Both the position numbers and the translations under genes were made by a program. A stretch of 64,000 nucleotides of DNA from Escherichia phage AV116: sequence record OR352946.1. One strand, 5' to 3'. The notes under the pieces were generated by a model, which saw only the letters and a list, made by a program, of their open reading frames with translations, was not told where the DNA came from and did no database searches. Shown piece after piece: positions 2,041 to 48,284 of this stretch (positions within the stretch are counted from its first letter, which is position 1; every line of letters begins with the position of its first letter).

Positions 2041-3710
2041 TGATGAGTGATATCGCCACCGATTGGACGATAGGAAACACCAGTTTCTTTATCAGTTAGT
2101 ACCCATTTACCAGGATTTTTTGTAATCAGAGTAGCCGTTACAGGTTCTGCTACGTCATAACTAATAGAGCCGTCCTGAAGTACACGGCCCATGTTACGTA
2201 ATTGCTTAGTCAGAAGTTCCATACCTTTATAATATGCGGCTACCGCTTTAAGTGGATTATTCTTGAAATAACCACCTAATGCAATCCAGATAATTGCCAC
2301 AGCCAAATGATGATATTCATTAAACGAACTCAGCTTTCCATATTTGTAAACTAATGGATTGATGTTAATAGTCACATTACAAGTTGTTTCATCAATAGTA
2401 AACTGTCCCCAGGTCGGATTAGCATTGAATTCATCATAACCTGAAACAGCATAAAGCACTTTAGCTTCATCATACAATTTTGGCCCGTAAATCTTGGTTT
2501 CACCAAAATATCCACGAGGGTCGATAAATTTGACTTCGCCGTTATCAGTAATCATAGTATTACTGAAGTTCGGGTCACCATGAATAACAGAGTACTGTCC
2601 CTGAGAACGGTTATGATAACGAATAAGGTGTTCTAAAGCTTGTTTCAGCATTGGCTTCAGACGTCCAATCTTAGTGTAGTTCACATGTGTGATTTTACCA
2701 AATGAATCAATCAATGGTTGAATGCTTTCACAACGATCAATAACTTTCGTATAGAATTCTTTAGTGAAATCACGACGAACAGTTTCAGGACTTACAAAAT
2801 AAGTGTCTGTGCTGAATTTCAGTGCATCTAAAATTGCATCAACAATTTGTGGACGAGCAAGACTTGATTTGGATTTAATATATTCAAATGCCGGCTTACC
2901 TTTAATGCGTTCCATTTCAAAGTTATTTTCATTAACAGAAACTAACTGAGGAACTGAATCTGATTTCACTTTCAAATACCACGAAATCTCATCTTTCTGA
3001 AGAGCTCGACCTTGTTCAGTTAATGCGAATTTAGTTACAGTTTCTTCACCAATTTCAACTGCATTAAAACTACGATTAAGTTCACGAACTTCATGAGCCT
3101 TTTCAAGTTTAGGCATATCACCAAGGTCGATGATATTCATAAGCTCTGATTTATTGAATGCGCCGCTGTAAAGGAATTCTACGAAATCACGTCCTTTGCA
3201 GTATTCATGAATTTCCTCATCGGTAGAACCCATGTAGAATTCCCAGTCTTTGAACTGATAAATTCCTACAACATTACCACCTGTTGAACCTACGTTAGTG
3301 ATATTTTCACCGTCGAAATTATACCGACATTCATCACCCTTAACATAGATTGCGTTAACATTCCAAGACCATGAACCAAAATCAGGAATAATATCACACC
3401 AGTTAACAATTACATTATGGCCATCTAAATCTTTGTGTAATTTAGCAAGAGCATAAGCAGAACCATACGCTTCATCAACTGTACGAATAGTCACATTGAA
3501 CCCTTCTTGCTCACAATAAGCTCGAACAGTTTCAGCAAATTTTGAATGAACTACTACGATAATTTCATCTGCGCCAAGGTCAGAATAAATTGTATACAAA
3601 TTGCTCAGAATAGTGTCTTGTTTATAGTTAACAAGCACCTTAGGAATATGATGCGTTATTGGATACAAACGAGTTGCCAGTCCAGCACCAAGAATAACAG
3701 CTTTTTTCAT
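2025..3710 (-). CDS. bifunctional sugar-1-phosphate nucleotidyltransferase / APH-like sugar kinase
   Basis: 561 aa; N-terminal LGAGLATRL (GxGxxTRL nucleotidyltransferase signature); C-terminal HGDPNFSNTMI and IDPRG, typical of choline/aminoglycoside-type kinases. Confidence 0.8.
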   Translation of the reverse strand: MKKAVILGAGLATRLYPITHHIPKVLVNYKQDTILSNLYTIYSDLGADEIIVVVHSKFAETVRAYCEQEGFNVTIRTVDEAYGSAYALAKLHKDLDGHNVIVNWCDIIPDFGSWSWNVNAIYVKGDECRYNFDGENITNVGSTGGNVVGIYQFKDWEFYMGSTDEEIHEYCKGRDFVEFLYSGAFNKSELMNIIDLGDMPKLEKAHEVRELNRSFNAVEIGEETVTKFALTEQGRALQKDEISWYLKVKSDSVPQLVSVNENNFEMERIKGKPAFEYIKSKSSLARPQIVDAILDALKFSTDTYFVSPETVRRDFTKEFYTKVIDRCESIQPLIDSFGKITHVNYTKIGRLKPMLKQALEHLIRYHNRSQGQYSVIHGDPNFSNTMITDNGEVKFIDPRGYFGETKIYGPKLYDEAKVLYAVSGYDEFNANPTWGQFTIDETTCNVTININPLVYKYGKLSSFNEYHHLAVAIIWIALGGYFKNNPLKAVAAYYKGMELLTKQLRNMGRVLQDGSISYDVAEPVTATLITKNPGKWVLTDKETGVSYRPIGGDITHQWERI

Positions 3711-3895: not shown

Positions 3896-4527
3896 TGTTC
3901 GCCTCGTAACATGGCACCTAGTGCACCGCCTGGATGGAACTTAAGGAAATCATTAGAGGTAAATCCACGTTCAGACGAAAGGTTGATAGCAAACGTATCG
4001 ATAAGCGCTAACAACAATGTAGTGGACATAGTCGGAGCTAAAGAGTTCTCGTCAACTTCTACCGCGATACCGGTACAGAACGTATAATCAAAAAGAGCTT
4101 CGTATTCTTGTGGAATGTCAGGGTTACAATGTAACAGAATCTGTTTAACCTGAGGACGAATCATACGAAGATGTTTAGCAACACCTATCATTTCTTCAGT
4201 CTTACCAGAACGACTGATGTGAACTAATACATCATTAGGTGCAATAAATCCTGCGTCACCATGAGAATAATGCCCAGTGTTCAAGTACATACTTGGGATA
4301 CCGAGTGAAGCAAAAGTCTCGGAAGCTTTAGTTGCGATATTAGCGTTCTTACCAACACCTGTAATAATTACCCGGCTTTCATAATTACTAAGTCCAGGGC
4401 GTCGAAGAGTTTCTAGAATAGCGTTATAACGAGCAGGGTTTTGACTAATTACTTTAGCCATAGTGGCAAGAGATGAAGCTTGTTTTACGATTGCGTCAAT
4501 AGCGATAGTGATTGGTGTAGTTTTCAT
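3892..4527 (-). CDS. SIS-domain sugar-phosphate isomerase (KdsD/GutQ-like arabinose-5-phosphate isomerase, no CBS domains)
   Basis: 211 aa; GVGKNANIATKASETFASLGIPS...HGDAGFI...VHISRSGKTEE matches the SIS/KdsD phospho-sugar binding pattern. Confidence 0.8.
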   Translation of the reverse strand: MKTTPITIAIDAIVKQASSLATMAKVISQNPARYNAILETLRRPGLSNYESRVIITGVGKNANIATKASETFASLGIPSMYLNTGHYSHGDAGFIAPNDVLVHISRSGKTEEMIGVAKHLRMIRPQVKQILLHCNPDIPQEYEALFDYTFCTGIAVEVDENSLAPTMSTTLLLALIDTFAINLSSERGFTSNDFLKFHPGGALGAMLRGEQ

Positions 4528-4567
4528 ATTTCTCTCATTTAATTAGTTGGCCGTCCTTGGCATTATA

Positions 4568-7279
4568 TCAAAAATCAAACATATCGAACAGAGATGCTTT
4601 CTTCTCGTAATCGAGTTTAGCTGCTGATGTGAATCCTTCAAGTGGTTTAATAAATGTCTTCTCAAGGAGAACAGTGTAGTCCATCCAATGAAGTACATCG
4701 TCTTTAATTAAATCTGTGATTTCAGTACCAGAAGGCCATGCGATACATTTATCACCGAATGGGTTTCCTTCACGTAAAGGCAGAACATATACTTTTTCAC
4801 CTTCTACAACTTGCGGTGCATCGATATTACCTTTGATAGCCCGGTTATACGTCAGAATTCCACGAATATGGAACGGGCATTTAGGACCAGGGAATCCACC
4901 GACATCATATTTAGCAATGTTATTCGCAGAAGATACCGACGCGATGCTAATATAATTCAATTGACGGAATTCTTTTTCAAACTCTTTAAAATATTCTTGT
5001 AATGATTCTTCACCTTCTTGAAGCATACGACGAATACATTCTTTAAGAGCTTTCTGTACTGCTTTAGGGGTCGAAGATTTCTGAGTCTCTAGACCCATGA
5101 TTTTGAGTTTAGGCTCAGCGTAACGAGTGCCTTCCATATCCCACACGTTTAATGCATAACGTTTCTTACCAGTCCAGAATCCACCAATACCTTTAGAACC
5201 GAGCGGAGGACCAGCGATAGCTTCTCGGTCCATGAACATTAAGTGTTGTTTATTGTTCATGTATTCACACATTTCACGGAAACCTCTATCAATAGCTGGT
5301 TCCATACGTTCACGTGCAAACTTATCTAAGAAGTCTACCCAATGGTTGGTATCACGGAATTTAGATTCACCAACCTTATCGATAATTTTATCAGCAGATA
5401 CGTAAATAGAGTCTGTATCACCATAAAGAACGAAAGCTTCACCTTCTGTACCACAAACTTCATTCAGATATTCATTAACTTTACGTTCAATCCACTGTAA
5501 AGCCATTTGCCCGAATGTTGTGATTGCAGTAGCATTACGCAAATCATAATAACGGAACCAAACGTTGCCAAGTGCACCATAAAGTGAGTTGATAAGCAAT
5601 TTACGGTTAATTTGTGCAGTCATACCTGCAACTTCAGTACGTTGAGCTCTAAACAACATTTCATTAAGAGATTTAGCAGACAACTTTTTAATCTTTTCTT
5701 TAATCTCATCACTGAAGTCGAAACGATAATCAACATCTAATGGTTCGTCAATAGAAAGATTAGGATTATGCAATGCCTCTTTAATTATTTCACCATTACG
5801 TTGAGCTGCAAGCATGTAACCTTTATGTTCTTTACGTTGATTAAAGACCTTAGTGATTTCAGTTGGAACTACACCATCACGGTCTTTATAATACATCATG
5901 CCGTTAGGAGAACAACTGTACACATCTGAAGGACGTTCAGCGATTGCGTTAATATAATCATGTAATGGAGCTACTTTAAACGTTCCTGCTATTGTTTCTG
6001 GGCTAATATTCACTTGGCGAATGATGCTTGGATACAGAGATGTAAGGTCGAAACTCATTACATATTTGTATCGATTTGGAATAGGTTCCTTAACAAAAGC
6101 GCCGGGATAAGGTTGAACCGGGTGAGAACGACCTTGTGGAATCACCTTGTTCTGCTCTTTAAGGCTATTAAAAATAATAGCATCCCATGTTTTAATTGGG
6201 CTAAACACAGATTGAATCTGTATCTTAGCATAATAACCCATGTCCAAGCTCAAGTTGATGAACTGACGCTTAGCATCAATTTGCAATACACGATACACGT
6301 CGATAATGTTATAAGAAATATATCGTTGGTGATTGCTTTCACGAAGCTTAGAAATAGGGCCGTCATATTTCAGTTTACCAACGTTCAATTCAAATTCTGA
6401 AATGTAATCCAGAGAATACGACGGTTGATTGGTAAAAGAGAATTTTTTGTAAAGGTCAATGTAATCAAGAACAGAGATACCGAACAATGTAATGATTTCA
6501 CGAGAACCATACATGTTTTCGATAACTTTAACACGAGTTTTACGATGTGGCGATAAACGTTTCGCAGTAGATTCGCCAAAAATATTCTTGATTCGGTTAT
6601 ACACATATGGAATATCAAATGACTCAACGTTCCATCCGGTTAAAATGACAGGAGTTTTCTGTTGCCAGAAATTGAGATATTCCATCAATAATTCTTTTTC
6701 GTTATCGAACGGCATATAAATGATTTTATCGATAATTTCAGATGGAACTTCATCACCACCTTGTTCTTGAAGCTTAGCAGCGATTTCAATAGACCATTCT
6801 TCTACATTACCATACGGAGAATTCAATAGATCAAATACGTAGAACCTGTCGTCAATTGAGTCATAATGGGTGATAGCATCAATAGGATGCTTTGCTTGTG
6901 CCGGCTCAGGGAACCCGTCCGGAGATGTTACTTCGATGTCGAAGTTAGCCACACGAATTTTTGTATGGTCGTATTTGATTTCATAGTTATAAGTGTCAGA
7001 CAAATACGCCAATTTGAAATCGTCCATGCCAAGTGCTTCAAGTCCGATATCTTCCATGCGTTTAATCCATTGGGAGGCATCACGCATATTAGCGAACAAC
7101 TTACGAGTACACGGCTTACCGTAGATATCGAAATATTTCGTAGCCTGACTTTCTGGACAATGAGCAAACAGTGATGGTTTATATTCTACTTCACGAGTAC
7201 GTTCACGGCCATTAGAATCGATGTAACGTTCAAAAATTGAATCACCAATCTGTTCAACCGTTAAGTAAAATTCTTTCAT
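4568..7279 (-). CDS. 43: DNA polymerase (family B) gp43
   Basis: 903 aa; recognisable T4 gp43 sequence with exonuclease and polymerase motifs (YGDTDS); flanked by regA-62-44-45 as in T4. Confidence 0.97.
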   Translation of the reverse strand: MKEFYLTVEQIGDSIFERYIDSNGRERTREVEYKPSLFAHCPESQATKYFDIYGKPCTRKLFANMRDASQWIKRMEDIGLEALGMDDFKLAYLSDTYNYEIKYDHTKIRVANFDIEVTSPDGFPEPAQAKHPIDAITHYDSIDDRFYVFDLLNSPYGNVEEWSIEIAAKLQEQGGDEVPSEIIDKIIYMPFDNEKELLMEYLNFWQQKTPVILTGWNVESFDIPYVYNRIKNIFGESTAKRLSPHRKTRVKVIENMYGSREIITLFGISVLDYIDLYKKFSFTNQPSYSLDYISEFELNVGKLKYDGPISKLRESNHQRYISYNIIDVYRVLQIDAKRQFINLSLDMGYYAKIQIQSVFSPIKTWDAIIFNSLKEQNKVIPQGRSHPVQPYPGAFVKEPIPNRYKYVMSFDLTSLYPSIIRQVNISPETIAGTFKVAPLHDYINAIAERPSDVYSCSPNGMMYYKDRDGVVPTEITKVFNQRKEHKGYMLAAQRNGEIIKEALHNPNLSIDEPLDVDYRFDFSDEIKEKIKKLSAKSLNEMLFRAQRTEVAGMTAQINRKLLINSLYGALGNVWFRYYDLRNATAITTFGQMALQWIERKVNEYLNEVCGTEGEAFVLYGDTDSIYVSADKIIDKVGESKFRDTNHWVDFLDKFARERMEPAIDRGFREMCEYMNNKQHLMFMDREAIAGPPLGSKGIGGFWTGKKRYALNVWDMEGTRYAEPKLKIMGLETQKSSTPKAVQKALKECIRRMLQEGEESLQEYFKEFEKEFRQLNYISIASVSSANNIAKYDVGGFPGPKCPFHIRGILTYNRAIKGNIDAPQVVEGEKVYVLPLREGNPFGDKCIAWPSGTEITDLIKDDVLHWMDYTVLLEKTFIKPLEGFTSAAKLDYEKKASLFDMFDF

Positions 7280-8296: not shown

Positions 8297-9259
8297 TTAT
8301 TTCCAAGTCAGTTCGCAGGTCAGTTGAAGAAGCATATACATAACATGTAATTCAATATTACTTGCTAATCCATGAAACTTATTGTTTTCGCCTGCAATTT
8401 CATAAAGCGAAATAATACTTTTACCAGGTGCAACTTGGTCATAACATTCTGAAACTAATTTATCGATGAACCATGAATAATCTGCGGCATATTTTGGAGC
8501 TAATGCACGAAGTTGTTTGATATCTTTATTTTTCATTGCTTCTATGACATCATCTACCGTGCCACGGTCATTAGTTACGATAGACAAAATACCCGCATCA
8601 AGAACACCTTTAGACGAGTACTGGTCTAATTGACCAATTGTACGACGAAAGTCCGGGAAGTTCTTTTTAACCAGAGCTGCAACAACTTTCATATCAGCGA
8701 TTTCGATATTTTCGTTCTTACAGATTTCAACCATACGATGAATCATTTTCTTCATCATCGAGATTTTATCTTCTTCGGTTGGACGTCCGAATTCGATAAC
8801 TCGACAACGACTACGTAACGGTTCGATAATTCCATCGATGTTGTTAGCAGTAATAATAATAGAACAGTTACTAGAGAATTCTTCCATAAACGTACGAAGG
8901 TGACGTTGTGATTCGGCGAGGCCACTACGGTCAAATTCATCGATAACGATAACTTTCGGCTTGCCTTCCATTGAGACTGAACGAGCGAATGCAGTTAATG
9001 GACCACGCACAAAATCAATCTTACAATCAGAACCGTTGACGAACATCATTTCGGCATTAATATCATTACATAATGCTTTTGCTACGGTTGTTTTACCTGT
9101 ACCAGGAGAAGGAGAGTGTAAAATAATATGAGGAAGTTTTCCTTTAGATACTAAAGACTTGAATGTTTCATGGTCATACGCAGGCAGAATACATTCGTCA
9201 ATGGAAGAAGGACGATATTTCTGTTCTAGAATGTGTTCTTTGGAATTGATAGTAATCAT
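8297..9259 (-). CDS. 44: clamp loader ATPase gp44 (AAA+)
   Basis: 320 aa; Walker [11 protein letters not shown], Walker B VIVIDEFD; close match to T4 gp44. Confidence 0.95.
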
Positions 9260-9285
9260 GTAATTTTCCTCATTATCATTAAACT

Positions 9286-9301
9286 GGAGGATTTCTCCTC
9301 C
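9286..9301 (-). promoter_or_regulatory. RNA hairpin GGAGGA-GAAA-UCCUCC between genes 45 and 44
   Basis: 6-bp stem with GAAA tetraloop on the transcript, upstream of the gene 44 ribosome-binding site. Confidence 0.35.
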
Positions 9302-9334
9302 ATAATCGTATCACAATAAACGTAAAGCTTTGAC

Positions 9335-10021
9335 TTAGAAGTCGTGAGTAGAATCGGCTTCCATCGCAATAACATAACTTACTTGAGAGCTTTCAAACTT
9401 GGCTGCAACTTTATCACCAGCTCCCCACAACATTACTTTATAGTTACCTGGCTGGATTTTCATATTAGCCATATTGATTACGAAGTTAAAGTTGTTAGAA
9501 CCATCATAATCGGTAAGAGTCAAAGAATACTTAGGACGAGTTAGTCCTGAATCTTCAACTTTATTATAGCCATTGATAACAATTTTACCATCTTTATTTG
9601 TAATAGCAATTGTATCAATCTGAAGACCACGTGAAACTCGAAGCAATTGTTGAAGGTCTTCAGCTTTAATTTCAGTAATCACAGAAGCTACTGGGAATTG
9701 AATTGGCTTATTAGGAAAAACAATTGTGCTCTTGTCAGCGGCAGGCCAATAAACTGTGGAACGTGTATCTGCAATTTTAATATTGCCATCAGTGTGCATT
9801 GAAATTTCAGCATCATCAGACACTAGACTCAAAATGCTTAAGAAGCTATTCAAATCATAAAGTGCTACGTCAAAATCAATTTCATCAGAGATATTTGCTT
9901 CCGCATAAGTGGTGCCATTAACTGCACGAGTCATAATAAATTTACCTTGACTCAGCAGAATGCCAGAGTTAATAGAAGCGAAGTTTTTCAGAATATTTAC
10001 GGTTTCACGGCTAAGTTTCAT
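9335..10021 (-). CDS. 45: sliding clamp gp45
   Basis: 228 aa; position and sequence as T4 gp45. Confidence 0.9.
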   Translation of the reverse strand: MKLSRETVNILKNFASINSGILLSQGKFIMTRAVNGTTYAEANISDEIDFDVALYDLNSFLSILSLVSDDAEISMHTDGNIKIADTRSTVYWPAADKSTIVFPNKPIQFPVASVITEIKAEDLQQLLRVSRGLQIDTIAITNKDGKIVINGYNKVEDSGLTRPKYSLTLTDYDGSNNFNFVINMANMKIQPGNYKVMLWGAGDKVAAKFESSQVSYVIAMEADSTHDF

Positions 10022-10917
10022 TTAGGTTTCCTATTAGCATAATAATTTGTCCAAGTCCGGATAGCACCTTGGTATGATTCATCATTAAAACCATGCTGAA
10101 TTGCATGTTTTCTAAATGTAATATAACTTGGTTTTCCTAAAGCAATCCACAATTCCTTTAATTTTTGTTCATGAAATATCCATGTACCTCTAGCTTTAGA
10201 TTTTCTGAATTTATCCTTAAATTCTTTGGTTGCATTTCTTTTCGAAGCTGCGATAGAGGCCTTTGCTCTATTTTCAGGTTTAGACCAATACAATGTTTTA
10301 GATATTTTTATTTTATCTTTAACATTAGGAGAATTCATTATATCTTTAAATTTTAAAGCAAAATCTCTATCGTTAAACATTTTTTTAGAACGAATAGAAA
10401 CTTTCTCTCTTCGTTCTTTGGTCCAATATGTTTTTTGAAATTCTCTAATTGCGTTTAAATGATTCTCCGACAATTTGCAATTTTTTCTAACACCGACGTA
10501 ATCTTCGTTTATTTCGTTTTTAGAAAGTTTTACTATTTTGCCTGTTTTTAAATTTTTATACGGTGCATATCCTTTAGCTGATATTCTAGACTTCTCGTTA
10601 GCATAAGCCTTATTAAAATATTTTTCATTTGAAACGGCTTTAACATTGAGTTGGAATAGTCTTTCTATTCTTCTAGGGTCTAATGTGGTTTCGCCTAAAA
10701 TTTTTACAGAATATTCGCCTTGGTCTATTAATCTGTTATATAAAGGAGAATACGAGGAATTAACACTACCGGTATATATTTTACCGGTAGAATCTTCAAT
10801 AATATCCTTTCCATTAAAATGACACGAAACTTTAGAACCTATATAATAACACGGGTATTCATTTTTAATCTCACGATTATAAAAGGTTATAAGATATATT
10901 AAATTCATAATTATCAA
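10018..10917 (-). CDS. GIY-YIG family homing endonuclease (Seg-like), free-standing
   Basis: N-terminal IYLITFYN...YYIGSK (GIY-x12-YIG); lysine-rich C-terminal half; inserted between gene 45 and rpbA-like ORF. Confidence 0.7.
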   Translation of the reverse strand: MIIMNLIYLITFYNREIKNEYPCYYIGSKVSCHFNGKDIIEDSTGKIYTGSVNSSYSPLYNRLIDQGEYSVKILGETTLDPRRIERLFQLNVKAVSNEKYFNKAYANEKSRISAKGYAPYKNLKTGKIVKLSKNEINEDYVGVRKNCKLSENHLNAIREFQKTYWTKERREKVSIRSKKMFNDRDFALKFKDIMNSPNVKDKIKISKTLYWSKPENRAKASIAASKRNATKEFKDKFRKSKARGTWIFHEQKLKELWIALGKPSYITFRKHAIQHGFNDESYQGAIRTWTNYYANRKPK

Positions 10918-11330
10918 GCAACAACCATCTGCTTTTTAATAGCTTCAGGCAGTGATTCAATATATTCTGGAATTTTAGAAGCAACAATTTCGCCAGCTGC
11001 AATTAGTTGTTCGTCGGCATCAACACAGTAAAAATCTTCAAGGCGTTCAGAACCGTCTTTATCAAGAACGATTTTAGCACCTGCTTCGATAGAATCTTTA
11101 TAGTGCTTACGCATCAAATGAATCCACATATCAGACACATCGTTATCAATAAAACCATAAATCATAAAACGAGTTTCTTGTGGCAAAGATTGGAGTTTTT
11201 TAGCACTTGCGTCATCACAATGCAGGACCCATGCTTTACGAACACGATTATGGTTATGTGGGTTAGCGTCAGTACGGATAGAAGTAACTTTCAGATCAGC
11301 AGCAGTGAAACCTTTAGCAGTAGTAAACAT
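10914..11330 (-). CDS. rpbA: RpbA-like protein (assigned by position)
   Basis: 138-aa ORF in the T4 rpbA position between 45 and 46; sequence identity not verified. Confidence 0.45.
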   Translation of the reverse strand: MFTTAKGFTAADLKVTSIRTDANPHNHNRVRKAWVLHCDDASAKKLQSLPQETRFMIYGFIDNDVSDMWIHLMRKHYKDSIEAGAKIVLDKDGSERLEDFYCVDADEQLIAAGEIVASKIPEYIESLPEAIKKQMVVA

Positions 11331-11342
11331 ATTATTTCTCTC

Positions 11343-11543
11343 TTATTCGTAGAAGTCGGTAACTGTCCATGCGGAATTGCGATTAGACATTATTTTATTA
11401 TACTCATCTTTAAAAGCAGATTTGAGCATTTGTTCAGTAACAATATGTTCTTCACCTGAAAACGTATTGGTCAAAACATATTTTTTAATTTCAGGGACAA
11501 CGAGAAGATGTTGTCCAGTTGAATACTCCATGTTGTTCTCCAT
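11343..11543 (-). CDS. hypothetical protein (45.2-like position)
   Basis: 66-aa ORF between the rpbA-like ORF and gene 46. Confidence 0.45.
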   Translation of the reverse strand: MENNMEYSTGQHLLVVPEIKKYVLTNTFSGEEHIVTEQMLKSAFKDEYNKIMSNRNSAWTVTDFYE

Positions 11544-11585
11544 TTAACACGATGTGGTCATTATAACCACATCGTGTTAAAGCGT

Positions 11586-13274
11586 TTATGAAACAGTCAT
11601 TACCGTAAATCGTCCAACTTTGCTCATTTGAAGATGTTGTCCATAAGCTTGTGGGTCATGGTCTCTGTGACTAATTATAAACACGTTTGCATCGGTTAGA
11701 GAGTTAAGAATTGTTGAAATAGCTTTAATACCTTCAGAATCAGTCGCGGAATCCATGACTTCGTCCATAATTAATGTATTGATTCTAACACCAGAGACCT
11801 TTTCAGCAATATCTCGCCATGTAAACAACAACGCGATATCGATACGTGCTTTTTCACCTTGACTAAATGAAGCATAACTGAACTCTTCACGACCACGTGA
11901 TTTTATAGATTCATTGAATTCTTCGTCAATAGAAAACACGTAATCAGCTTCCATGATTTTAAGATAATGGTTAATCTGCTTGTTGAACAGAGGCACATAT
12001 TTTTTAATGATAGCACCTTTAATACCAGAATCTTTTAACATATCTGTGATAATACCACGATGGTATTTTTCAAGAACGATATCCGATTTTGTTTTAATGA
12101 TTTTATCAAGTTCTTTTTGAAGCAAAGCTATCTCATCGGCATGGTCGATAAATTCCGCTGAGGCTTGTTCTATTGCAGCTTTAACTTTCTTAGCTTTATC
12201 AATAGTGGCAATCATTGCTTGTTTCTTGGTACGAATATCAGATGCAAGGTCCTGTTTAGTCTTAACATTAGCTCTATATTCGTCCACTAGGACACTCAGA
12301 TTATCTCTGTGGCAGGTAAGTTGCTCGAATGAGTGATTACATTCATGAAGCTTATCGGTAATCTTAGAGACAATAGGATCACCCTGGTGCAACTGTGATG
12401 CGCAAGTAGGACATGTACCGCCATCATGATACATCTTAATAACTTTGTTGTATGAGTCAATTTTAGATTTAATCAAGAATGCTTCTTGTCCTATCTTGTT
12501 GAATGCCTCAGTAGGGTCTTCATCAAGAACGATATTAAGTAGTCGCTCATTAGCTTCTTCGATTTCTGCTTTTAATGAACGAGCTTCTTTAGCTAGGTCG
12601 TCATACATATTCTGTAGACGCGCTACATTATCACCAGATAATTTCTTTTGACGTTCGATATTCTCGTTATAAATCTTAATTTGTTGGATAACACCATCTT
12701 TCTTGGCATCGAGAACTTGTCCCTGGGAATTAAGTTCTCGAACTTGAGACTTATTGATTTTATCCATTTCAGCGAGTGTGCCGACTTCTAAAAGGTCTTC
12801 GACAAGTTTTCTACGAGCAGGGGTGCTAAGAGCCATGAAAGGGGTATACCCTGCCGTCCCAAGCACAACGATCTGTTTAAAAGACGCGTATGACATTCCG
12901 ATGCTACGTTCAAATTCTTCTTGGAAGTCACGACTGCTGGCAGATTCATCAAGACGAACACCGTCAACGGAGATTTCGAAAATATTGGGCTTTTGGCCAC
13001 GTTTAATGAAGTATTTTTTATCATCGAATTCCATCCAAAGCTCAACTAAGAGCTCTTTCTTGTTCGTGCTATTAATGATTTGTCCTTTCTTAACATCACG
13101 AAATGGTTTACCGAAAAGTCCGAAAGTAATGGCTTCTAACATCGTAGATTTACCACCGCCATTTTTACCAGTGATTAATGTCTTTTGAACTTTATCTAAT
13201 TGGATATCAATAGGATTCCCACCTACCGACATGATGTTTTGATAACGAACACGATTTAATTTAAATGATTTCAT
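11586..13274 (-). CDS. 46: recombination endonuclease ATPase subunit gp46 (Rad50/SbcC-like)
   Basis: 562 aa; Walker A GKNGGGKST, central coiled coil with CPTC zinc hook, C-terminal LIMDEV; T4 46-47 synteny. Confidence 0.95.
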   Translation of the reverse strand: MKSFKLNRVRYQNIMSVGGNPIDIQLDKVQKTLITGKNGGGKSTMLEAITFGLFGKPFRDVKKGQIINSTNKKELLVELWMEFDDKKYFIKRGQKPNIFEISVDGVRLDESASSRDFQEEFERSIGMSYASFKQIVVLGTAGYTPFMALSTPARRKLVEDLLEVGTLAEMDKINKSQVRELNSQGQVLDAKKDGVIQQIKIYNENIERQKKLSGDNVARLQNMYDDLAKEARSLKAEIEEANERLLNIVLDEDPTEAFNKIGQEAFLIKSKIDSYNKVIKMYHDGGTCPTCASQLHQGDPIVSKITDKLHECNHSFEQLTCHRDNLSVLVDEYRANVKTKQDLASDIRTKKQAMIATIDKAKKVKAAIEQASAEFIDHADEIALLQKELDKIIKTKSDIVLEKYHRGIITDMLKDSGIKGAIIKKYVPLFNKQINHYLKIMEADYVFSIDEEFNESIKSRGREEFSYASFSQGEKARIDIALLFTWRDIAEKVSGVRINTLIMDEVMDSATDSEGIKAISTILNSLTDANVFIISHRDHDPQAYGQHLQMSKVGRFTVMTVS

Positions 13275-13525: not shown

Positions 13526-13754
13526 TACACGCTTCAGCCATTTTAAGAATAGAGCCAGGAGTATCGTTGTCCATTATATTAAAGCTAAATTCAATAGCCC
13601 AGTCGGTGCAGACATGAACTGCTTTAACTTCATTGCCTTCAACGCGTAATGGCTCAATCCAATACTTGATAGTGTTCTCGAATCCATCGTCATCTTTAAC
13701 GTCCATTTCAACTTCAAGCCTGAGTCCAGCATTGTTAAATTCATCTAAAGTCAT
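13497..13754 (-). CDS. hypothetical protein (46.2-like position)
   Basis: 85-aa acidic ORF between 47 and 46. Confidence 0.5.
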   Translation of the reverse strand: MTLDEFNNAGLRLEVEMDVKDDDGFENTIKYWIEPLRVEGNEVKAVHVCTDWAIEFSFNIMDNDTPGSILKMAEACIEDAYNDED

Positions 13755-14773
13755 TGTGTTGCCTCAATATAAAGTTCGTTGGAATATTTGACCAGCGCTT
13801 CTCTGTCTTCATCTGAGATATCTGGAATCGCGTCAATATATTCTTTAATGATATCTTGAAGTGATTTAATCTCGATTTCCTGGTCGTCATCAGATTCAAC
13901 ACTGTTATCAACTTTAGAAACCATACGAAGAGAGTGAACTACTTTTTCAAGTTCAGATTCAAACTTAGTCAACTCTGAATCAATTTCTGATACTATAACA
14001 CGTACGGCTAGATTAGTATAATCAGAATAATTGATTTTGCCTTTAAATGGATAAGTGATTCGTCGATGCCATGTTGTTTCATTAGGAATAAATTCCATAC
14101 GTTCAACATCAGTGTCAAATACCCAGAATCCGCGCGGGTCGTTCTCATCACCTGCAGTAAGGGTCCATGGTGTCCCAATATATTTGACGTTAGCAGCTTC
14201 AGAGATTGTGTGGAAGTGGCCGGACCAGACTTGTTTATAGGTCTTTAAGAAATCAGGTTCAAGCCCATGAGACTTCATTCCTTTATAGAAATAGAAGCCA
14301 TTTAATTCCCAGTGCCCAACACAATACGCTGCAGAAGAAGTCTTGATGTGCTCTAAGATTTCACCTGTATTTTCTTCACACATCCATGGAATCAAATCAA
14401 TCAAGCACCCATCAAAATCTACTGTAGTTGGCTTATCATAAATTATTACGTTTTTACGATGGCTCAATAATTCTTGAACAGTGTTAGGATATAAGGTTGT
14501 TTTATAAAAGAGATCATGATTCCCAAGTATTGTATGGACTGTTATACCAGCGGCTTCCACCAAATCAAACATTTCACGCGTGAATTCCATACAACGTTGT
14601 GTGGTGTGGGCTCTGACATCAAATGTATCACCATATTGAATCCATGTTGTTATTCCATTTGCGACGGAATAGTCGATCATTTGTCTGAAACCGTCACGTT
14701 GTATAGCTTGAATCCAATCGTCGTCTTTTTTGACGCCTAGATGCAAATCGCCTATATTAAGTATTTTCATCAC
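13751..14773 (-). CDS. 47: recombination nuclease gp47 (Mre11/SbcD-like)
   Basis: 340 aa; calcineurin-like phosphoesterase motifs (GDLHLG, GNHD, GHFH). Confidence 0.95.
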   Translation of the reverse strand: MMKILNIGDLHLGVKKDDDWIQAIQRDGFRQMIDYSVANGITTWIQYGDTFDVRAHTTQRCMEFTREMFDLVEAAGITVHTILGNHDLFYKTTLYPNTVQELLSHRKNVIIYDKPTTVDFDGCLIDLIPWMCEENTGEILEHIKTSSAAYCVGHWELNGFYFYKGMKSHGLEPDFLKTYKQVWSGHFHTISEAANVKYIGTPWTLTAGDENDPRGFWVFDTDVERMEFIPNETTWHRRITYPFKGKINYSDYTNLAVRVIVSEIDSELTKFESELEKVVHSLRMVSKVDNSVESDDDQEIEIKSLQDIIKEYIDAIPDISDEDREALVKYSNELYIEATQ

Positions 14774-15573
14774 ATACCTTTAAATTTGGAGTAAATTATA
14801 TTGTGGTACGATATATCAGGAAACCCTTTATCGACCGCAATTTTTCTAAACTTATTAGGACTTATTTTACCACACTCCATCCATAATGCAAACAACTCGT
14901 CAAAATGCTCATATGCTGGACCTCGACGAGCTTTTGACACAGCAGCACTTATGCGAGCCTTTTTCTCAGAATCAAGGTTTTTAAGAGAATTACTTATTTT
15001 ATTTTTTTGCTCTTCTGAATTGAAGGTGCCTTTTTCCCAGCCTAAAGGTTGGCTTCCTTCATGGAACATTTTTCTTGAAGTTCCATTGGTATACCATATT
15101 TTACCTTTATTGTGCCCTGATGCTTTATATTTTGGTGAGCGTCCTTTTATAAATCCTTCAGGTATAGTAGGAGCAAATGTTTGTTCAAGGGTTTCTGGGT
15201 TATACGAATGTATGTTATTTTTGGCGTTATGAGACCCATATAATGGGTGATTTTTACCAGAAACATCACGCCCAAAGAAACCAGTTGGTGATGCCAAAGA
15301 CATATTCATATACAAAGGATTTTTATGAGCTTGAACTCTAATTTGATAGTCCTTTTCCACCTTTAAAGCTTCTTCTCGTGTTGGATGTTCGCTCAAAATA
15401 CAAGAATCAAACAACGTAGGATTTTCTAAAAGTTCTTTGTTATAAATTTTACGATAGGCTTTAGATAGAATAGTACCATGATACCCGTTTAAATGTTTTT
15501 CTAAGCTAGTCGAACCTATGTAAAAAGGTGGTAGCTTATCTCCAGAATAAATTGTCAAATAGACTATAAACAT
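14770..15573 (-). CDS. GIY-YIG homing endonuclease (Seg-like), free-standing
   Basis: MFIVYLTIY...FYIGST GIY-YIG motif, NUMOD-like HPLYGSHNAKNN; start set at internal ATG 15571-15573 preceded by AAGGAGA; track ORF start (15642) lies inside a terminator hairpin. Confidence 0.75.
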   Translation of the reverse strand: MFIVYLTIYSGDKLPPFYIGSTSLEKHLNGYHGTILSKAYRKIYNKELLENPTLFDSCILSEHPTREEALKVEKDYQIRVQAHKNPLYMNMSLASPTGFFGRDVSGKNHPLYGSHNAKNNIHSYNPETLEQTFAPTIPEGFIKGRSPKYKASGHNKGKIWYTNGTSRKMFHEGSQPLGWEKGTFNSEEQKNKISNSLKNLDSEKKARISAAVSKARRGPAYEHFDELFALWMECGKISPNKFRKIAVDKGFPDISYHNIIYSKFKGM

Positions 15574-15625
15574 ATATTTCTCCTTTGATTTAAGGAGATT
15601 ATAACACGCCTTTAATGAAGCGTAA

Positions 15626-15652
15626 ACAAAAAAAGGAAGCACTAGGCTTCCT
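15626..15652 (-). terminator. rho-independent terminator (7-bp stem AGGAAGC/GCUUCCU plus U7 tract)
   Basis: Hairpin 15634..15652 followed on the minus strand by a T-run (plus 15626..15633). Confidence 0.55.
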
Positions 15653-15718
15653 TTTGATATCGCCTAAGGCTTATAGGTCCTTAGAAATCTGGATGTTCAT
15701 CTTCAACAAAGCTAGTAT

Positions 15719-19623: not shown

Positions 19624-20094
19624 TTAATCATGTTTCCACACCCCATCGGTATTTGACCAAAGTCGCTGATTATCTGATCCTCGCCACAGTTTTTTGGTCG
19701 GAAGATTTTTCTCATACTTCCCATCAATAATAACATCAACATATTTAAGCATTTCTAGTTGTTTAATATCTTCAAACTTATATCCTGTCCACAACCAAAT
19801 GCTTTTATTGGGATAAAGATTTTTTACTGTTTGAACAATGCAATGAATAACATCTCGGTTATCAGGATAGAGAGGGTCACCTCCGGTTATAGTTAATCCT
19901 TCTATATAATCATTATTCAAACATTCAATTAATTGTTCTAGTGTTTCACCAGTGAATGGAATACCATTTCTAGCATTCCATGTTGATTTATTATAACACC
20001 CTTCGCATTTATGCAAACAACCTGTAACGAAAAGAACGACCCTACAACCAGGGCCATTCACAAAATCGCAAGGATAAAATCTATCATAATTCAT
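19624..20094 (-). CDS. nrdG: anaerobic ribonucleotide reductase activating protein NrdG (radical SAM)
   Basis: 156 aa; CLHKCEGCYN (CX3CX2C) near N-terminus; follows nrdD. Confidence 0.93.
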   Translation of the reverse strand: MNYDRFYPCDFVNGPGCRVVLFVTGCLHKCEGCYNKSTWNARNGIPFTGETLEQLIECLNNDYIEGLTITGGDPLYPDNRDVIHCIVQTVKNLYPNKSIWLWTGYKFEDIKQLEMLKYVDVIIDGKYEKNLPTKKLWRGSDNQRLWSNTDGVWKHD

Positions 20095-21908
20095 TGGTGT
20101 TTAACCCTATGCATGATTTCTTTATTTTTACCGAGATTAAATCCGCGTTCGTTCGGATTTCCCAAATAGCCGCATGTTCTTCTTATGGTGTTCATCTTTT
20201 TAGGATCAGTTTCTCCGCAAACTGAACAAACAAATCCATTTTCGGTAGGAGTCATTTCATGAGTACTTCCACATGTAAAACATTTATCTACTGGCATATT
20301 AACACCAAAATAATCTAAATGTTGTGCAGCATAATCCCAGACAGCCTCAAGTCCTTTTAAGTTATTTTTCATATCAGGAAGTTCAACATAAGAAATGTGA
20401 CCACCTGTCGCAATGAAATGATACGGCGCTTCACGAGAAATCTTTTCAAACGGAGTAGTATTTTCTTCTACTGAAACGTGGAAACTGTTAGTGTACCAGC
20501 CTTTATCGGTAACATCTTTTACACTTCCATATTTTTCTGTATCAAGTTTACAGAAGCGATAACAAAGGTTTTCAGCAGGAGTAGAATACAAACTAAAAGC
20601 AAAACCAGTTCTTTCAGTCCACTGTTTAAGATGAGCATTCATTTTAGTTAAAATTTCTTGTCCAATATCACGACCGACAAGAATATTCAATTCATGAATA
20701 CCGATGTATCCTAAAGACACTGAACTTCTACCGTTTTTAAATAGCTCAATTATATCGTCATCAGGTTTAAGACGAACCCCGAATGCACCTTCTTGGTAAA
20801 GAATAGGAGCAACAGTCGCTTTAACTCCTTTTAAGGAACTAATTCTACACATCAAAGCTTCAAAACACAGGTCCATTCGTTCATTGAATAATTCAACAAA
20901 TTTCTGTTCATTGAACTGTGTTCCAATATAAGAATCTAATGCGATACGAGGAAGATTCAGTGTTACAACGCCGAGATTATTACGACCGTCAAGAATTTCA
21001 TTTCCAGTTGAATCTTTCCATACGCTCAAGAAACTACGGCAACCCATCGGAGAAACTGGAACTGAAGAACCGGTAATAGCTTTATTATTCTTAACTGAAA
21101 TAATGTCAGGATACATTCTTTTGCTTGCACATTCTAACGCAAGTTGTTTAATATCATAGTTTGGATCATCTTTATAAAGATTAACACCTTCTTCAAAAAA
21201 CATAACAAGCTTAGGGAAAATAGGAGTTATTCCATCACGTCCAAGGCCTTTAATGCGGTTTTTAAGAATTGCCTTCTGAATCATTCGTTCAGTCCAGTCA
21301 GTTCCCGTACCAAATGTAATTGTCACAAAAGGCGTTTGTCCGTTTGAACTAAAGAGAGTGTTTACTTCATATTCATAAGCTTGGAATGCATCGTATACGT
21401 CTTTTTCTGTTTTAGATTGAGCATAATTCAGAATGTCTGGTATTTGCCATTTTTCTGCATCTTCAACATGTTTAGCGTATGTGCGTTTAACATAAGGAGA
21501 AAGAACTTTATCGACATTCGCAAATGTAGTTCCGCCATACTGGTGTGAAGCAACTTGTGCAGTAATTTGTGCCATAATTGCAGTAGCAACGCCAATAGAT
21601 TTAGGCGTTTCAATTTGAGCATTGCCTAATTTAAATCCATTCTCAAGCATTCCTTTTAAATCTACTAAACAGCAATTAGTAAAAGGCAATGATATACTAT
21701 AATCTAAATCGTGAAAATGAATTAATCCGACATTATGAGCATTTACAATATGGCTCGGAAGAATACTACAAGCGATATGTTTAGAAACAATACCGGCCAT
21801 TAAATCTCTTTTTGTTGGAAAGACACGAGAATCTTTGTTGGCATTTTCGGTATTTAATTCTTTATCTTTATTTGAAATAAAATTTAAAACATCTTTCTCT
21901 AAAGACAT
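20091..21908 (-). CDS. nrdD: anaerobic ribonucleoside-triphosphate reductase NrdD
   Basis: 605 aa, uninterrupted; C-terminal zinc-ribbon cysteines and glycyl-radical region. Confidence 0.95.
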   Translation of the reverse strand: MSLEKDVLNFISNKDKELNTENANKDSRVFPTKRDLMAGIVSKHIACSILPSHIVNAHNVGLIHFHDLDYSISLPFTNCCLVDLKGMLENGFKLGNAQIETPKSIGVATAIMAQITAQVASHQYGGTTFANVDKVLSPYVKRTYAKHVEDAEKWQIPDILNYAQSKTEKDVYDAFQAYEYEVNTLFSSNGQTPFVTITFGTGTDWTERMIQKAILKNRIKGLGRDGITPIFPKLVMFFEEGVNLYKDDPNYDIKQLALECASKRMYPDIISVKNNKAITGSSVPVSPMGCRSFLSVWKDSTGNEILDGRNNLGVVTLNLPRIALDSYIGTQFNEQKFVELFNERMDLCFEALMCRISSLKGVKATVAPILYQEGAFGVRLKPDDDIIELFKNGRSSVSLGYIGIHELNILVGRDIGQEILTKMNAHLKQWTERTGFAFSLYSTPAENLCYRFCKLDTEKYGSVKDVTDKGWYTNSFHVSVEENTTPFEKISREAPYHFIATGGHISYVELPDMKNNLKGLEAVWDYAAQHLDYFGVNMPVDKCFTCGSTHEMTPTENGFVCSVCGETDPKKMNTIRRTCGYLGNPNERGFNLGKNKEIMHRVKHQ

Positions 21909-22720
21909 AATTCTAATTTATCCTTTTGAAATTCTTCGTCTAAATATGGGTTCCAACCCATTTTAAACCTTTTGATGAAATTATCAATTCTAAATTTCGG
22001 TAAATTTAACTCCGCAAAAATAGATGATTTACTTTTAAAATCTGGACCTAAATAATCATATAAAATTTCTGCGTATTTTAACCATAATATATAAGTACCA
22101 GATTTAATTGCGTTCGGAGTTTTCCAAGGTTTTACACCATACATCGGATTTCCACTTCCTTTATGCCTGATAGAAGATGAAATTCCAATTTTAATTTTAG
22201 CTTCCTTTGTATGCGAAAATCCACGATGCGGATTTTCTTTCCAGTATTTTTTAGCAGCTTCTGATATTTTCTTTCTGGCTAAATTAGTATGATGCTTTCC
22301 ATAAAATCCATGATTTTTGCCTTTATTACGATTTCTTTTAATCATGGTTATTGATTGCTTTTCTCTAGTTTCTTTAGAAGGAGAAATACCATATGTCGTA
22401 AATTTGCCATCAGCATATGCTAAATTAAAATACTCTTTATTCCATACATCTTTTTCTATATTCTTTTGAAATTCAGCTTCAATGCTAGTTATTTGTTCAT
22501 CTCCGACTAATTGAAAATATAATATTTCAACTTTCGGCGTTTCTTTCAATAAGGCTTTTTGAAATTCGGAAGATGACGAAGACGAATAATAAAATTTACC
22601 ATTTTTATCAATAATATTCGTTCCATCAAAAGTGCAATTGGTTTTACTTCCAATGTAATAATATGGTGGGGTTTTAGCATTAATTCTATTAATAAATGAT
22701 AGTTTATATACTACATTCAT
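21899..22720 (-). CDS. GIY-YIG homing endonuclease, free-standing
   Basis: VYKLSF...YYYIGSK motif and NUMOD-like NHGFYGKHHT; N-terminus resembles the endonuclease at 10018..10917. Confidence 0.7.
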   Translation of the reverse strand: MNVVYKLSFINRINAKTPPYYYIGSKTNCTFDGTNIIDKNGKFYYSSSSSSEFQKALLKETPKVEILYFQLVGDEQITSIEAEFQKNIEKDVWNKEYFNLAYADGKFTTYGISPSKETREKQSITMIKRNRNKGKNHGFYGKHHTNLARKKISEAAKKYWKENPHRGFSHTKEAKIKIGISSSIRHKGSGNPMYGVKPWKTPNAIKSGTYILWLKYAEILYDYLGPDFKSKSSIFAELNLPKFRIDNFIKRFKMGWNPYLDEEFQKDKLELCL

Positions 22721-23190
22721 TTTAAACTCTTTCTAAGCTGCTTTTTGAATGAAGCTATTAATTGTGTTTTAGTATCAGATTCAGTATATTCAAATCCTCT
22801 TTGAAGCATCTCAGCCATCATTTCCTCTTTACCTAGTCTTGAGAACTCTTTAGTTTTGTCTGGAACAAAATTAGGATGGATATTATTATCAGAATAATCT
22901 TGTTTCAAATAAGCAAGAAGAGCTTCAAGCCATTCTAAGTAGTCAACGTTTTGACCTTTCAAACCGGAACGGTTGAACTTATGCTTCATTTGACCTTCTG
23001 CTGCGTTGCACAGATTACAGAGTAATCCACGAACTCTACCGGCTTTTGGCCCGTTTAATTCATGGTCGTGGTCAAGATGGTTACCTTGAACATCAGGGTC
23101 TAATTCACGGTGGCAAATAGGACACTTACCGTTCTGTGCATCATAAAATTTTTGTTTTTCTTCTTTATATTTTGCGCCTGATAATAACAT
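22717..23190 (-). CDS. 49: recombination endonuclease VII gp49
   Basis: 157 aa; strong match to T4 endo VII (CPICHREL...HLDHDH...LLCNLCN). Confidence 0.93.
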   Translation of the reverse strand: MLLSGAKYKEEKQKFYDAQNGKCPICHRELDPDVQGNHLDHDHELNGPKAGRVRGLLCNLCNAAEGQMKHKFNRSGLKGQNVDYLEWLEALLAYLKQDYSDNNIHPNFVPDKTKEFSRLGKEEMMAEMLQRGFEYTESDTKTQLIASFKKQLRKSLK

Positions 23191-43239: not shown

Positions 43240-43545
43240 TTAGCACAACGCAGAAGACGAAACCCAAGCACCTTCAGTAATAACGTAACCATTACCTTCA
43301 CGCTTAACATCGCCACCATTATTTTCAATTTCATTTTTCATCCACTGGGATACGATTTCACCCTTAGGATAATAAGTACGACCGCTACCATAATCACCTA
43401 CAGAAAATGATACGGCATATTGGTCTGCGATCTTTGTTGCTTCTTCTTCGATACGTTCAGCTTGATTCAGAAGTTTATAAATTGCATCTGAAGCGGATTT
43501 GGCATCATTAAACTCTGGTACTTTAATTTCAATAATCTTACTCAT
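43240..43545 (-). CDS. small protein, GWVSSSxxC C-terminal family (paralog 1)
   Basis: 101 aa; ends ...GAWVSSSALC. Confidence 0.5.
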   Translation of the reverse strand: MSKIIEIKVPEFNDAKSASDAIYKLLNQAERIEEEATKIADQYAVSFSVGDYGSGRTYYPKGEIVSQWMKNEIENNGGDVKREGNGYVITEGAWVSSSALC

Positions 43546-43901
43546 TTTCTACATTCCTTAATAAAGTTTTCGATTGTTTCATTTTCACGTTTAGCTAGAA
43601 GTTCATTATAACTAATCATTTGAGAAGCGTAAATCTTTTTATTTTTCTTGTTATGGTTTATAAAATCGTAGTAAAAATAGACTACAGTACAAAATGATGC
43701 GATGGATGCAAAGGCTTGGGTATACCGTAAGTCCTGCCATTGGTCTGTGAATCCACCAGTGTTCCCTATAAATCCTAACACAACGCCGTCAATAAGAAAT
43801 CCAACTAATCCAAAGGCAAATCCCATGCCAATACTCATAATAAAAATTAGAATGTTCTCACCAAGAGAAGGCCATATGGTTAAGAGTTGAGGCTTTTGCA
43901 T
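43542..43901 (-). CDS. membrane protein, FIxECR C-terminal family
   Basis: 119 aa; TM helices; C-terminus ...IENFIKECRK. Confidence 0.5.
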   Translation of the reverse strand: MQKPQLLTIWPSLGENILIFIMSIGMGFAFGLVGFLIDGVVLGFIGNTGGFTDQWQDLRYTQAFASIASFCTVVYFYYDFINHNKKNKKIYASQMISYNELLAKRENETIENFIKECRK

Positions 43902-44867: not shown

Positions 44868-44895
44868 AAGGAGGACCGGAGTCCTCCGTATTATT

Positions 44896-45489: not shown

Positions 45490-45511
45490 ATTATTACCTT
45501 TCAATTGGTGG

Positions 45512-47577: not shown

Positions 47578-48243
47578 TTAAAATTTCATTTTTCGACCTT
47601 TAAACCATCCTTCTGGAATTGGGTCAGTTTTCTTAATACGTTTAGAAACTTTTTCATCTAATGAATGAATCCACATCATACCAAATTGGGAATTCTTTTC
47701 GCCCTGTTGATGTTTATTTCTGGCGTGAGATTCTTTCATTTTATTAATAGTTTCAAGAGTATGGGTCTTACCCAAGAAAGATTTAGTATTTAAAAATTTC
47801 TCTCTATACTTAGGATTATCCCAAAGCTGTTTAAACCTTTCTGAACCCATTTTACGATATTTTTCTTTAAGGTCTGGGTCGTTCTCAAATCTGGTTTTAA
47901 AAGCAGCAGCCCCTTTTAAGGAAGCTTCTTTCTTTTTATCCAAATATTCTTTAGTGTTTAAATGGTCCCAACCACCTTCACCACCTAATTTCAAATTATA
48001 AACATCAGGGCGCTTTAAAAACTCTTCAGTCACAATATTCTTTTCTGACTCAAACATAGAGGTTTTATCGTCAAAGAACTCTAATATTTCTTTAGAGAAA
48101 TTTTCTATACCATACTTGTCTTGGGCTCTTTTTAATAATTTACCAGAACCCATATATCCATCATCTAAATTTTCGGTAGAATGGGCGCCTATATAGATTT
48201 TATTATTAATTTTATTTGTTATTTTATAAGTGTAATGGAACAT
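47578..48243 (-). CDS. segB: GIY-YIG homing endonuclease (SegB-like) within the tRNA cluster
   Basis: 221 aa; YKITNKINNKIYIGAHS GIY-YIG motif; lies between two tRNA genes as segB does in T4. Confidence 0.75.
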   Translation of the reverse strand: MFHYTYKITNKINNKIYIGAHSTENLDDGYMGSGKLLKRAQDKYGIENFSKEILEFFDDKTSMFESEKNIVTEEFLKRPDVYNLKLGGEGGWDHLNTKEYLDKKKEASLKGAAAFKTRFENDPDLKEKYRKMGSERFKQLWDNPKYREKFLNTKSFLGKTHTLETINKMKESHARNKHQQGEKNSQFGMMWIHSLDEKVSKRIKKTDPIPEGWFKGRKMKF

Positions 48244-48284
48244 AAATATCTCCTATTTCTAAGAGTATTTATGTTCCCAAAATA

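Follow-up and report, generated by a model that had tools for sequence, protein, structure and literature searches.

The window analysed here, a stretch of 64,000 nucleotides (nt) from Escherichia phage AV116 (OR352946.1), derives from a Mosigvirus genome (RB69-like, T-even-type) and contains four homing-endonuclease-like open reading frames (ORFs), all on the minus strand, with intact reading frames and situated between core genes, where a preliminary description of the sequence had put them. ORF1 (10018..10908; 296 amino acids (aa)) lies between rpbA and gene 45, ORF2 (14770..15573; 267 aa) in the 47-55 interval directly ahead of gene 47, ORF3 (21899..22720; 273 aa) between gene 49 and nrdD, and ORF4 (47578..48243; 221 aa) between two tRNA genes, with gene names taken from the annotations of AV109, mar005P1, and T4. 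All four are placed outside introns and inteins and oriented as their neighbours, with start and stop codons that overlap or abut those of the adjacent genes. No fifth homing endonuclease gene (HEG) was found in the window by a BLAST comparison of all six-frame ORFs of at least 70 aa with the T4 Seg, Mob, and I-Tev proteins. ORF1 is annotated as hypothetical everywhere, ORF2 as hypothetical or, in error, as HNH, and ORF3 as a homing endonuclease in AV109 and once elsewhere as SegG. The window has a GC content of 0.37; its positions 9000-12000 are 99.1% identical to Escherichia phage AV109 (OR352939.1), and a direct comparison aligned positions 1-31358 and 48285-64000 to that phage at 98.8-99.6%, with a few segments replaced.

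The four proteins were compared with T4 reference proteins extracted from AF158101. ORF4 aligned with T4 SegB over 221/221 aa at 83% identity (E 5e-139) and is a SegB orthologue. ORF1 to ORF3 matched the N terminus of T4 SegG: ORF3 at 40% identity to residues 1-124 (E 5e-26), and ORF1 and ORF2 at 38% (E 1e-14) and 31% (E 2e-6), respectively, to the N-terminal domain. These alignments are confined to the N-terminal ~110-138 aa, with T4 SegG residues 1-130 common to all three. Given E values of 1e-6 to 1e-139 against T4 Seg proteins, together with same-site homologues in other phages, the four similarities are not due to chance. Sharing of an N-terminal module had been noticed earlier for two of the ORFs; the sharing is real, and it extends to three (ORF1 versus ORF3, E 2e-18; ORF1 versus ORF2, E 1.5e-11). 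The C-terminal modules are unlike, with NUMOD3 in ORF3 and helical repeats in ORF1, although ORF1 and ORF2 have a C-terminal motif in common and show weak C-terminal matches to the C termini of SegA and MobD. The assignment of ORF1 to ORF3 as SegG orthologues was rejected, since only the N terminus aligns and both the C-terminal modules and the genomic sites (not 59/32) differ.

The two motif tyrosines, the Gly, and the catalytic Glu and Asn of the GIY-YIG superfamily are present. Across 68 SegG-like sequences there is no variation at ORF1 Y5, Y22-I23-G24, Y45, E82, and N99, nor at ORF2 Y5, Y18-I19-G20, E73, and N90 across 70 sequences of its family, and the motif residues of both align with I-TevI Y6, Y17, G19, E75, and N90. 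The GIY-to-YIG spacing of ORF1 and ORF3 exceeds the canonical one, and SegG-like sequences have a near-invariant Lys after YIGS. Profile-profile comparison with T4 SegA-F and I-TevI placed the motifs in register (E 6.5e-5, probability 64%). Structures of ORF1 and ORF2 modelled from alignments of 68 and 70 homologues (predicted local distance difference test scores of 87 and 88) displayed the alpha/beta fold of the superfamily, in which helices flank a three-stranded sheet, and the best structural match of both N-terminal models was the I-TevI catalytic domain (1LN0; 76-80/92 residues, root mean square deviation ~3 A), followed by PD-T4-3, UvrC, T4 EndoII, Eco29kI, and SLX1, all of which are GIY-YIG proteins. 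The C termini of the models matched small Myb-, homeodomain-, and winged-helix-like DNA-binding domains. Searches of solved structures by phmmer (ORF1) and hmmsearch (SegG-like profile) gave no relevant match.

Domain databases were less uniform. PHROGs placed all four ORFs in "homing endonuclease" families, the best family for ORF2 being labelled "HNH endonuclease", and relatives of ORF2 are widely called "HNH endonuclease" in PHROG 10820 and in GenBank records; judged by the motifs and the modelled fold, which are GIY-YIG, this label is a propagated misannotation. The Pfam GIY-YIG model (PF01541) recognised ORF4 (25.7 bits, cut-off 22.6), and ORF3 scored above the cut-off with NUMOD3 alone (29.6 bits). 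A precomputed PF01541 match exists for just 1 of ~90 SegG-like relatives, and by these profile scores the SegG-like clade lies beyond the reach of the Pfam model.

For each insertion, nt identity was binned in 50-nt steps against relatives lacking the respective HEG. Each of the four genes is missing from close relatives, a comparison that had been proposed as a check, and the resulting presence/absence polymorphism has precise boundaries at every site. At the genes 45, 47, and nrdD the upstream gene is 98-100% identical up to the HEG, and divergence is one-sided: a linked, diverged allele makes up the downstream gene's 5' end.

The clearest such case is ORF3 (SegG-like nuclease domain and NUMOD3 repeats, GC 0.29), which overlaps both gene 49 upstream (22717-23190, minus strand) and nrdD downstream (20091-21908, minus strand) and has breakpoints at 21849/22716; at the empty site in p000v and T4, 49 overlaps nrdD. 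It was found at 96% or more nt identity in 49 phage records from both Mosigvirus and Tequatrovirus. The first ~86 codons of nrdD (21650..21908, minus strand; ~255 nt) travel with it. Against HEG-less p000v this tract is 44-78% identical at the nt level and most of the remaining gene 96-100%, which corresponds to 67% aa identity over NrdD residues 1-86 as against 99% for the remainder. Comparison with the HEG-containing Tequatrovirus Shinka gave the opposite picture: identity was 93-100% in the nrdD tract and all along ORF3 and dropped to 68-90% in gene 49 upstream, so that the cassette common to both phages spans ~22830 to ~21640. The alternative nrdD allele is common to HEG-less p000v and T4 at 90-100%. 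Across the phage collection, 48 records have ORF3 and the tract as one contiguous stretch, and 312 have the other allele (60-80%). The GC content of the tract (0.286) is HEG-like, compared with 0.352 for nrdD as a whole. The ORF3 cassette is 96-100% identical between two genera whose flanks differ by 10-30%, which implies that its transfer was recent. The tract is putatively co-converted and cleavage-resistant, and the pattern as a whole argues strongly for homing of ORF3. Two further phages carry partial versions of the arrangement: OLB35 has the HEG-linked nrdD allele (96%) without ORF3, and in FL18 only the 5' ~600 nt of ORF3 are left. These look like stages of loss and decay, as expected for HEG life cycles.

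ORF2 takes the place of a-gt.2 and most of a-gt.3 (breakpoints 14770/15888) immediately upstream of gene 47 (13751-14773, minus strand), which in mar005P1 is followed by a-gt.2. It is preceded by a strong Shine-Dalgarno sequence and was found in 4 of ~150 close records. Homologues at 58-65% aa identity, many without the C-terminal third, have gene 47 as their neighbour in Tequatrovirus (G28) and in phages of the QL01/LQ5 type, so that the family adjoins this gene in three genera. The divergent 5' third of gene 47 linked to ORF2 covers the first ~124 codons (14401..14773, minus strand; ~370 nt) and is 52-76% identical in nt to HEG-less Mosigvirus, compared with 94-100% for the rest of the gene; gp47 residues 1-124 are likewise 61% identical in aa and the remainder 99%, with the Mre11-type motifs intact in the translation. 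The tract is confined to AV109/114/115/118 (100%), the next best match being 77%. As in nrdD, it is putatively a co-converted, cleavage-resistant segment, and the sequences make a good case for homing of ORF2.

ORF1 (SegG-like GIY-YIG, GC 0.29) separates rpbA (10914-11330, minus strand) from gene 45 (9335-10021, minus strand), the start of which its stop codon overlaps (ATGA). The preliminary description had extended it to a TTG at 10917; the gene itself stands, and its start is most likely the ATG at 10908, because AV109 is annotated in this way and all homologues begin with MN(L/C)(I/V)Y. These homologue starts fall directly after, or overlap, the rpbA stop. ORF1 is present in 9 of ~150 close records with breakpoints at 9995/10911, and the empty site in mar005P1 reads rpbA-42 bp-45. 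ORF1 is rare in its complete architecture: a word-indexed search returned four full-length homologues, and an exhaustive search of 1.84 billion protein representatives gave 111 matches (E <= 1e-3), nearly all of them to residues 1-150. Every full-length homologue examined lies between rpbA and 45, namely those of the Tequatrovirus phages G10400, N2, S1P5QW, CP, and EC121 (~59% aa identity) and of metagenome contigs (49% and 63%), and the family comprises four lineages that are 49-63% identical to one another.

The accompanying change in gene 45 is confined to its 5' end (9995..10021, minus strand; ~26 nt), where ~9 codons are recoded, giving MKLSRETVN rather than MKLSKDTIA. The alignment with the HEG-less relative breaks off at 9995, with 57-65% identity over the first 30 nt and 93-100% thereafter; the last 50-nt bin (9985-10021) is 65% identical and those of the remaining gene 94-100%. 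HEG-less Mosigvirus and T4 have ATGAAACTGTCTAAAGATACTA in common at the gene 45 start, and codons 3-9 are altered in 4 of 4 HEG-containing lineages (among the changes Ser TCT to AGC/AGT, Lys to Arg, and Asp to Glu). Such recoding is the look to be expected of a resistant target allele, and the segment is predicted to be either a cleavage-resistant allele or the target region of ORF1; for this ORF the evidence is suggestive of homing. In phage G2285 a copy of ORF1 (2519-3408) has a 1-nt deletion at nt 523 that truncates it after the nuclease domain, and this decaying copy fits the HEG cycle of invasion, decay, and loss. The same phage carries an extra 238-aa ORF on the plus strand (4112-4828), between 45.2 and 46 and opposite in strand, which encodes a Mob-like HNH homing endonuclease with 44% identity to the T4 MobE N terminus and I-TevIII-like zinc-finger repeats.

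ORF4, or segB, had been placed inside a tRNA cluster; it does lie between tRNA genes, the "cluster" consisting of tRNA-Arg(tct) (47498-47574, minus strand; Rfam 71 bits), 3 nt downstream of segB as in T4, and tRNA-Met(cat) upstream (48285-48356, minus strand; Rfam 62 bits) only, both detected by ARAGORN. The segB segment 47157-48297 is 95.6% identical in nt to Tequatrovirus SHFML-11 and 84% to the copy in Mosigvirus p000v. The gene is absent from moskry, where tRNA-Arg lies 7 bp from tRNA-Met, and from AV109 (breakpoints 47574/48279). In AV109, 99% identical elsewhere, a tRNA-Asn gene beside tRNA-Met replaces segB and tRNA-Arg; it has the exact SegB core GGTTCGAATCC, which is lacking in the tRNA-Arg and tRNA-Met genes of the window. 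In T2L the preferred site of T4 SegB is the tRNA-Asn gene, and the enzyme recognises this T-psi-C core (PMC2330249). The evidence for homing of ORF4 may likewise be rated as good.

Several further features of this region were noted. The only exact copy of GGTTCGAATCC in the window is at 47253 on the minus strand, within 47157-47497, a homologue of the T4 rnaC/rnaD (species 1 and 2 RNA) region downstream of tRNA-Arg; Rfam found the two tRNAs alone in the segB region and no family for 47157-47497. The stretch 46470-48285, which includes segB, stands where AV109 has a different 677-bp segment, and ~2.8 kb at 43272-46062, with several minus-strand ORFs of unknown function, are not found in AV109; the two may represent a single long conversion tract or independent mosaicism. 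AV109 in turn has ~0.6 kb extra at each of window positions ~32100 and ~37640.

Taken together, the four ORFs are very likely to be free-standing T-even "Seg"-type GIY-YIG HEGs that have spread by double-strand-break repair with co-conversion, ORF4 being SegB and ORF1 to ORF3 members of a SegG-like clade that are each tied to their own site. The earlier proposal of free-standing GIY-YIG HEGs at core-gene junctions is supported, in that ORF4 aligned as SegB and the other three with the SegG N terminus among the Seg and Mob proteins, and profile searches did not reveal them to be anything other than nucleases, such as domains for DNA binding alone. T4 SegA-G make homing endonucleases of this kind well known (PMC2988022), and those of the window are a clear but expected example of a known phenomenon. 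In mixed infections, the C-terminal module (NUMOD3 or helical repeats with a small helix-turn-helix-like domain) would bind the HEG-less allele of the neighbouring gene, and the N-terminal GIY-YIG domain would cut both strands there. Phage recombination would then repair the break off the HEG-containing genome, copying in the HEG and the stretch up to the cut, and differences within the copied stretch would render the new host resistant to re-cutting. The footprint of such a process is directly visible as precise presence and absence, one-sided tracts, and the passage of ORF3 with 255 nt of nrdD across genera at 96-100% identity. The targets are predicted to lie around AAACTGTCTAAAGATACT, in the initial ~25 bp of gene 45, for ORF1; inside the first ~370 bp of gene 47 for ORF2; inside the first ~255 bp of nrdD for ORF3; and, for ORF4, in tRNA T-psi-C-arm sequences such as that of the AV109 tRNA-Asn gene. 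The one-sided tracts agree with the suggestion that such targets would mark sites of marker exclusion in co-infections.

Signals that may govern expression were found at three of the genes. A hairpin at 48237..48277 on the minus strand (-21.4 kcal/mol, z -6.2) hides the segB Shine-Dalgarno sequence and AUG and holds the late-promoter-like CATAAATA in its 5' arm. It is conserved in T4, SHFML-11, and p000v, with one compensatory pair, for which T4 and SHFML-11 have A-U and the window and p000v have G-C, and the substitution on the 3' side makes codon 3 His instead of Tyr; the same ribosome-binding site (RBS)-sequestering arrangement has been described for T4 segB (PMC2988022). A scan in and near the four HEGs found no T4 late promoter (TATAAATA). 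Upstream of ORF2 (15579..15655, minus strand), a pattern scan whose hits are consensus matches only gave a terminator-like hairpin (15655-15631), a promoter-like TTTACG-17-TATAAT (15626-15598), and a small hairpin (15598-15579) in which the ORF2 Shine-Dalgarno sequence is paired, and the region folds at -8.6 kcal/mol (z -3.2). These elements could limit translation to transcripts begun at the TTTACG-17-TATAAT site (compare T4 HEG regulation, PMC2988022). Within ORF1, the 3' end holds the gene 45 Shine-Dalgarno sequence, and a near-consensus MotA box with -10 element (TGCTTTAGGAAAACCAAGTTATATT) occurs at 10120-10144 on the minus strand, with ~125 nt between it and the start of gene 45. This looser match is conserved in all four ORF1 lineages, yet it also encodes the conserved peptide ALGKPSY; it may be a promoter or may reflect coding conservation alone. 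A strict MotA-box match at 10363-10337 in ORF1 was dropped, as it is not conserved in homologues.

Several observations weigh against homing as the explanation. PF01541 stays below threshold for ORF1 to ORF3 (ORF2 17.8 bits, cut-off 22.6; ORF1 and ORF3 unmatched), NCBIfam returns nothing for ORF1 and ORF2, and the catalytic Arg27 of I-TevI has no aligned residue in any of the three. In gene 45 the tract is short and varies among the four HEG-containing lineages. The donor of the gene 47 tract was not found, 77% being the best match beyond the AV109 group, and the cleavage activity and targets of all four enzymes are read from sequence. The missing Arg27 is not disqualifying, because T4 SegG and the T4 Seg proteins that lack an equivalent are reported to be active; a counterpart is likewise unaligned in T4 SegG and SegA-E.

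Some of these points would also suit a different reading, in which some or all of ORF1 to ORF3 are catalytically dead relics or have been domesticated for DNA binding or regulation, are kept for the RBS or promoter of the downstream essential gene, and no longer home. It would account for the want of a GIY-YIG call by Pfam or NCBIfam for ORF1 and ORF3, the unaligned Arg27, the gene 45 Shine-Dalgarno sequence and conserved MotA-box-like motif within the ORF1 3' end, and the long tenure of the ORF1 family at one site, where its lineages are as little as 49-63% identical; T4 SegD is reported not to home. This reading is nevertheless unlikely, since 68-70 family members show no variation at the Tyr, Tyr-Ile-Gly, Glu, and Asn positions, since the reading frames are intact, since the near-identity of the ORF3 cassette between diverged genera implies recent transfer, and since the frameshifted copies in relatives indicate that selection is not simply keeping any copy. 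Ordinary T-even mosaicism, with the tracts in 45, 47, and nrdD abutting HEGs by coincidence, is very improbable. T-even genomes are indeed mosaic, several further, HEG-free places distinguish the window from AV109, and the search for a donor of the gene 47 tract found none. At three independent sites, however, the tract begins exactly at the HEG junction and on the downstream side only, with the upstream gene nearly identical right to the junction; the nrdD allele and its HEG occur together in 48 of 49 records with similar GC; and the HEG-less alleles of two genera are closer to each other in the tract (90-100%) than in the remaining nrdD. A recent duplication by which one endonuclease gene spread through the genome, the "paralogous spread" of the preliminary description, might have explained the SegG-like N-terminal domain of ORF1 to ORF3 and the C-terminal motif of ORF1 and ORF2, but it is scarcely credible and was rejected on identity levels, because the three are mutually just 24-31% identical with different C-terminal modules, compared with 58-65% (ORF3 at least 96%) to same-site counterparts in other genera, and they are instead old, site-specific lineages that were acquired separately.

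A broader proposal, which we regard as rather unlikely, is that ORF1 represents an uncharacterised, long-lived Seg lineage locked to rpbA/45 in four or more lineages that persists by supplying translation and transcription signals to the essential clamp gene, that HEGs more broadly drive exchange of the N termini of essential proteins between genera, and that SegB may aid anti-defence amplification. If true, HEGs would carry N-terminal segments from one genus to another in proteins essential for replication and recombination, with 33-39% of the residues replaced in those of gp47 and NrdD. Anti-defence amplification of the tRNA locus has recently been shown for T6 (PMC13096335). Mention of a Seg enzyme linked to 45/rpbA or to gene 47 was not encountered in the literature searched, a negative that is weak evidence.

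Homing by these genes, as favoured above, leaves the established picture of T-even homing endonucleases unchanged. Free-standing HEGs influence which alleles survive when related phages co-infect, which matters for phage evolution and for how stable therapeutic phage cocktails are. The ORF3 cassette, which moved almost unchanged between Mosigvirus and Tequatrovirus, is a clean natural example, and it is joined by two rarer cassettes, one attached to the sliding-clamp gene and one to the gene for an Mre11-like nuclease. The analysis further yields concrete target predictions and reveals that standard domain models miss the SegG-like nuclease clade.

Among known systems, I-TevI of the td intron resembles ORF1 to ORF3 in its architecture of nuclease, linker, and DNA-binding domain, with NUMOD3-type linker similarity in ORF3, but the window proteins are not intron-encoded, are ~20% identical to it, have a longer GIY-to-YIG spacing, and leave Arg27 unaligned. 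T4 SegF, like the window HEGs, is encoded by a free-standing GIY-YIG gene between two genes. Its "intronless homing" involves a target that HEG-less phages carry in the adjacent gene, together with localised marker exclusion and flank co-conversion (Belle et al. 2002, as cited in PMC2330249); sequence similarity is weak (E 1e-3 to 0.04, C-terminal regions), and the activity of the window HEGs is putative by comparison. T4 SegG (gene 32.1), which according to Liu et al. (2003, as cited in PMC2988022) cuts T2 gene 32 and co-converts from a distant site, shares with ORF1 to ORF3 its N-terminal nuclease domain (31-40%; MN.VY...PPYYIGSK...Y.GS...E...YFN..YA) and its layout, in which an HEG just upstream of an essential gene is accompanied by a co-conversion tract into that gene. 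The sites differ, being rpbA/45, upstream of 47, and 49/nrdD rather than 59/32, and ORF1 to ORF3 are longer (267-296 versus 210 aa) with other C-terminal DNA-binding modules, as befits clade relatives rather than orthologues. T4 SegB (Brok-Volchanskaya et al. 2008, PMC2330249) is the known counterpart of ORF4. Its upstream neighbour is tRNA-Ile, whereas that of ORF4 is tRNA-Met, and the ORF4 host is a Mosigvirus with two tRNA genes. It is like ORF4 in length (221 aa), in sequence (83% aa identity), in its site just upstream of tRNA-Arg, and in the RBS-sequestering hairpin with a late-promoter-like element, and its preferred type of target, a tRNA-Asn with GGTTCGAATCC, occupies the place of segB in AV109.

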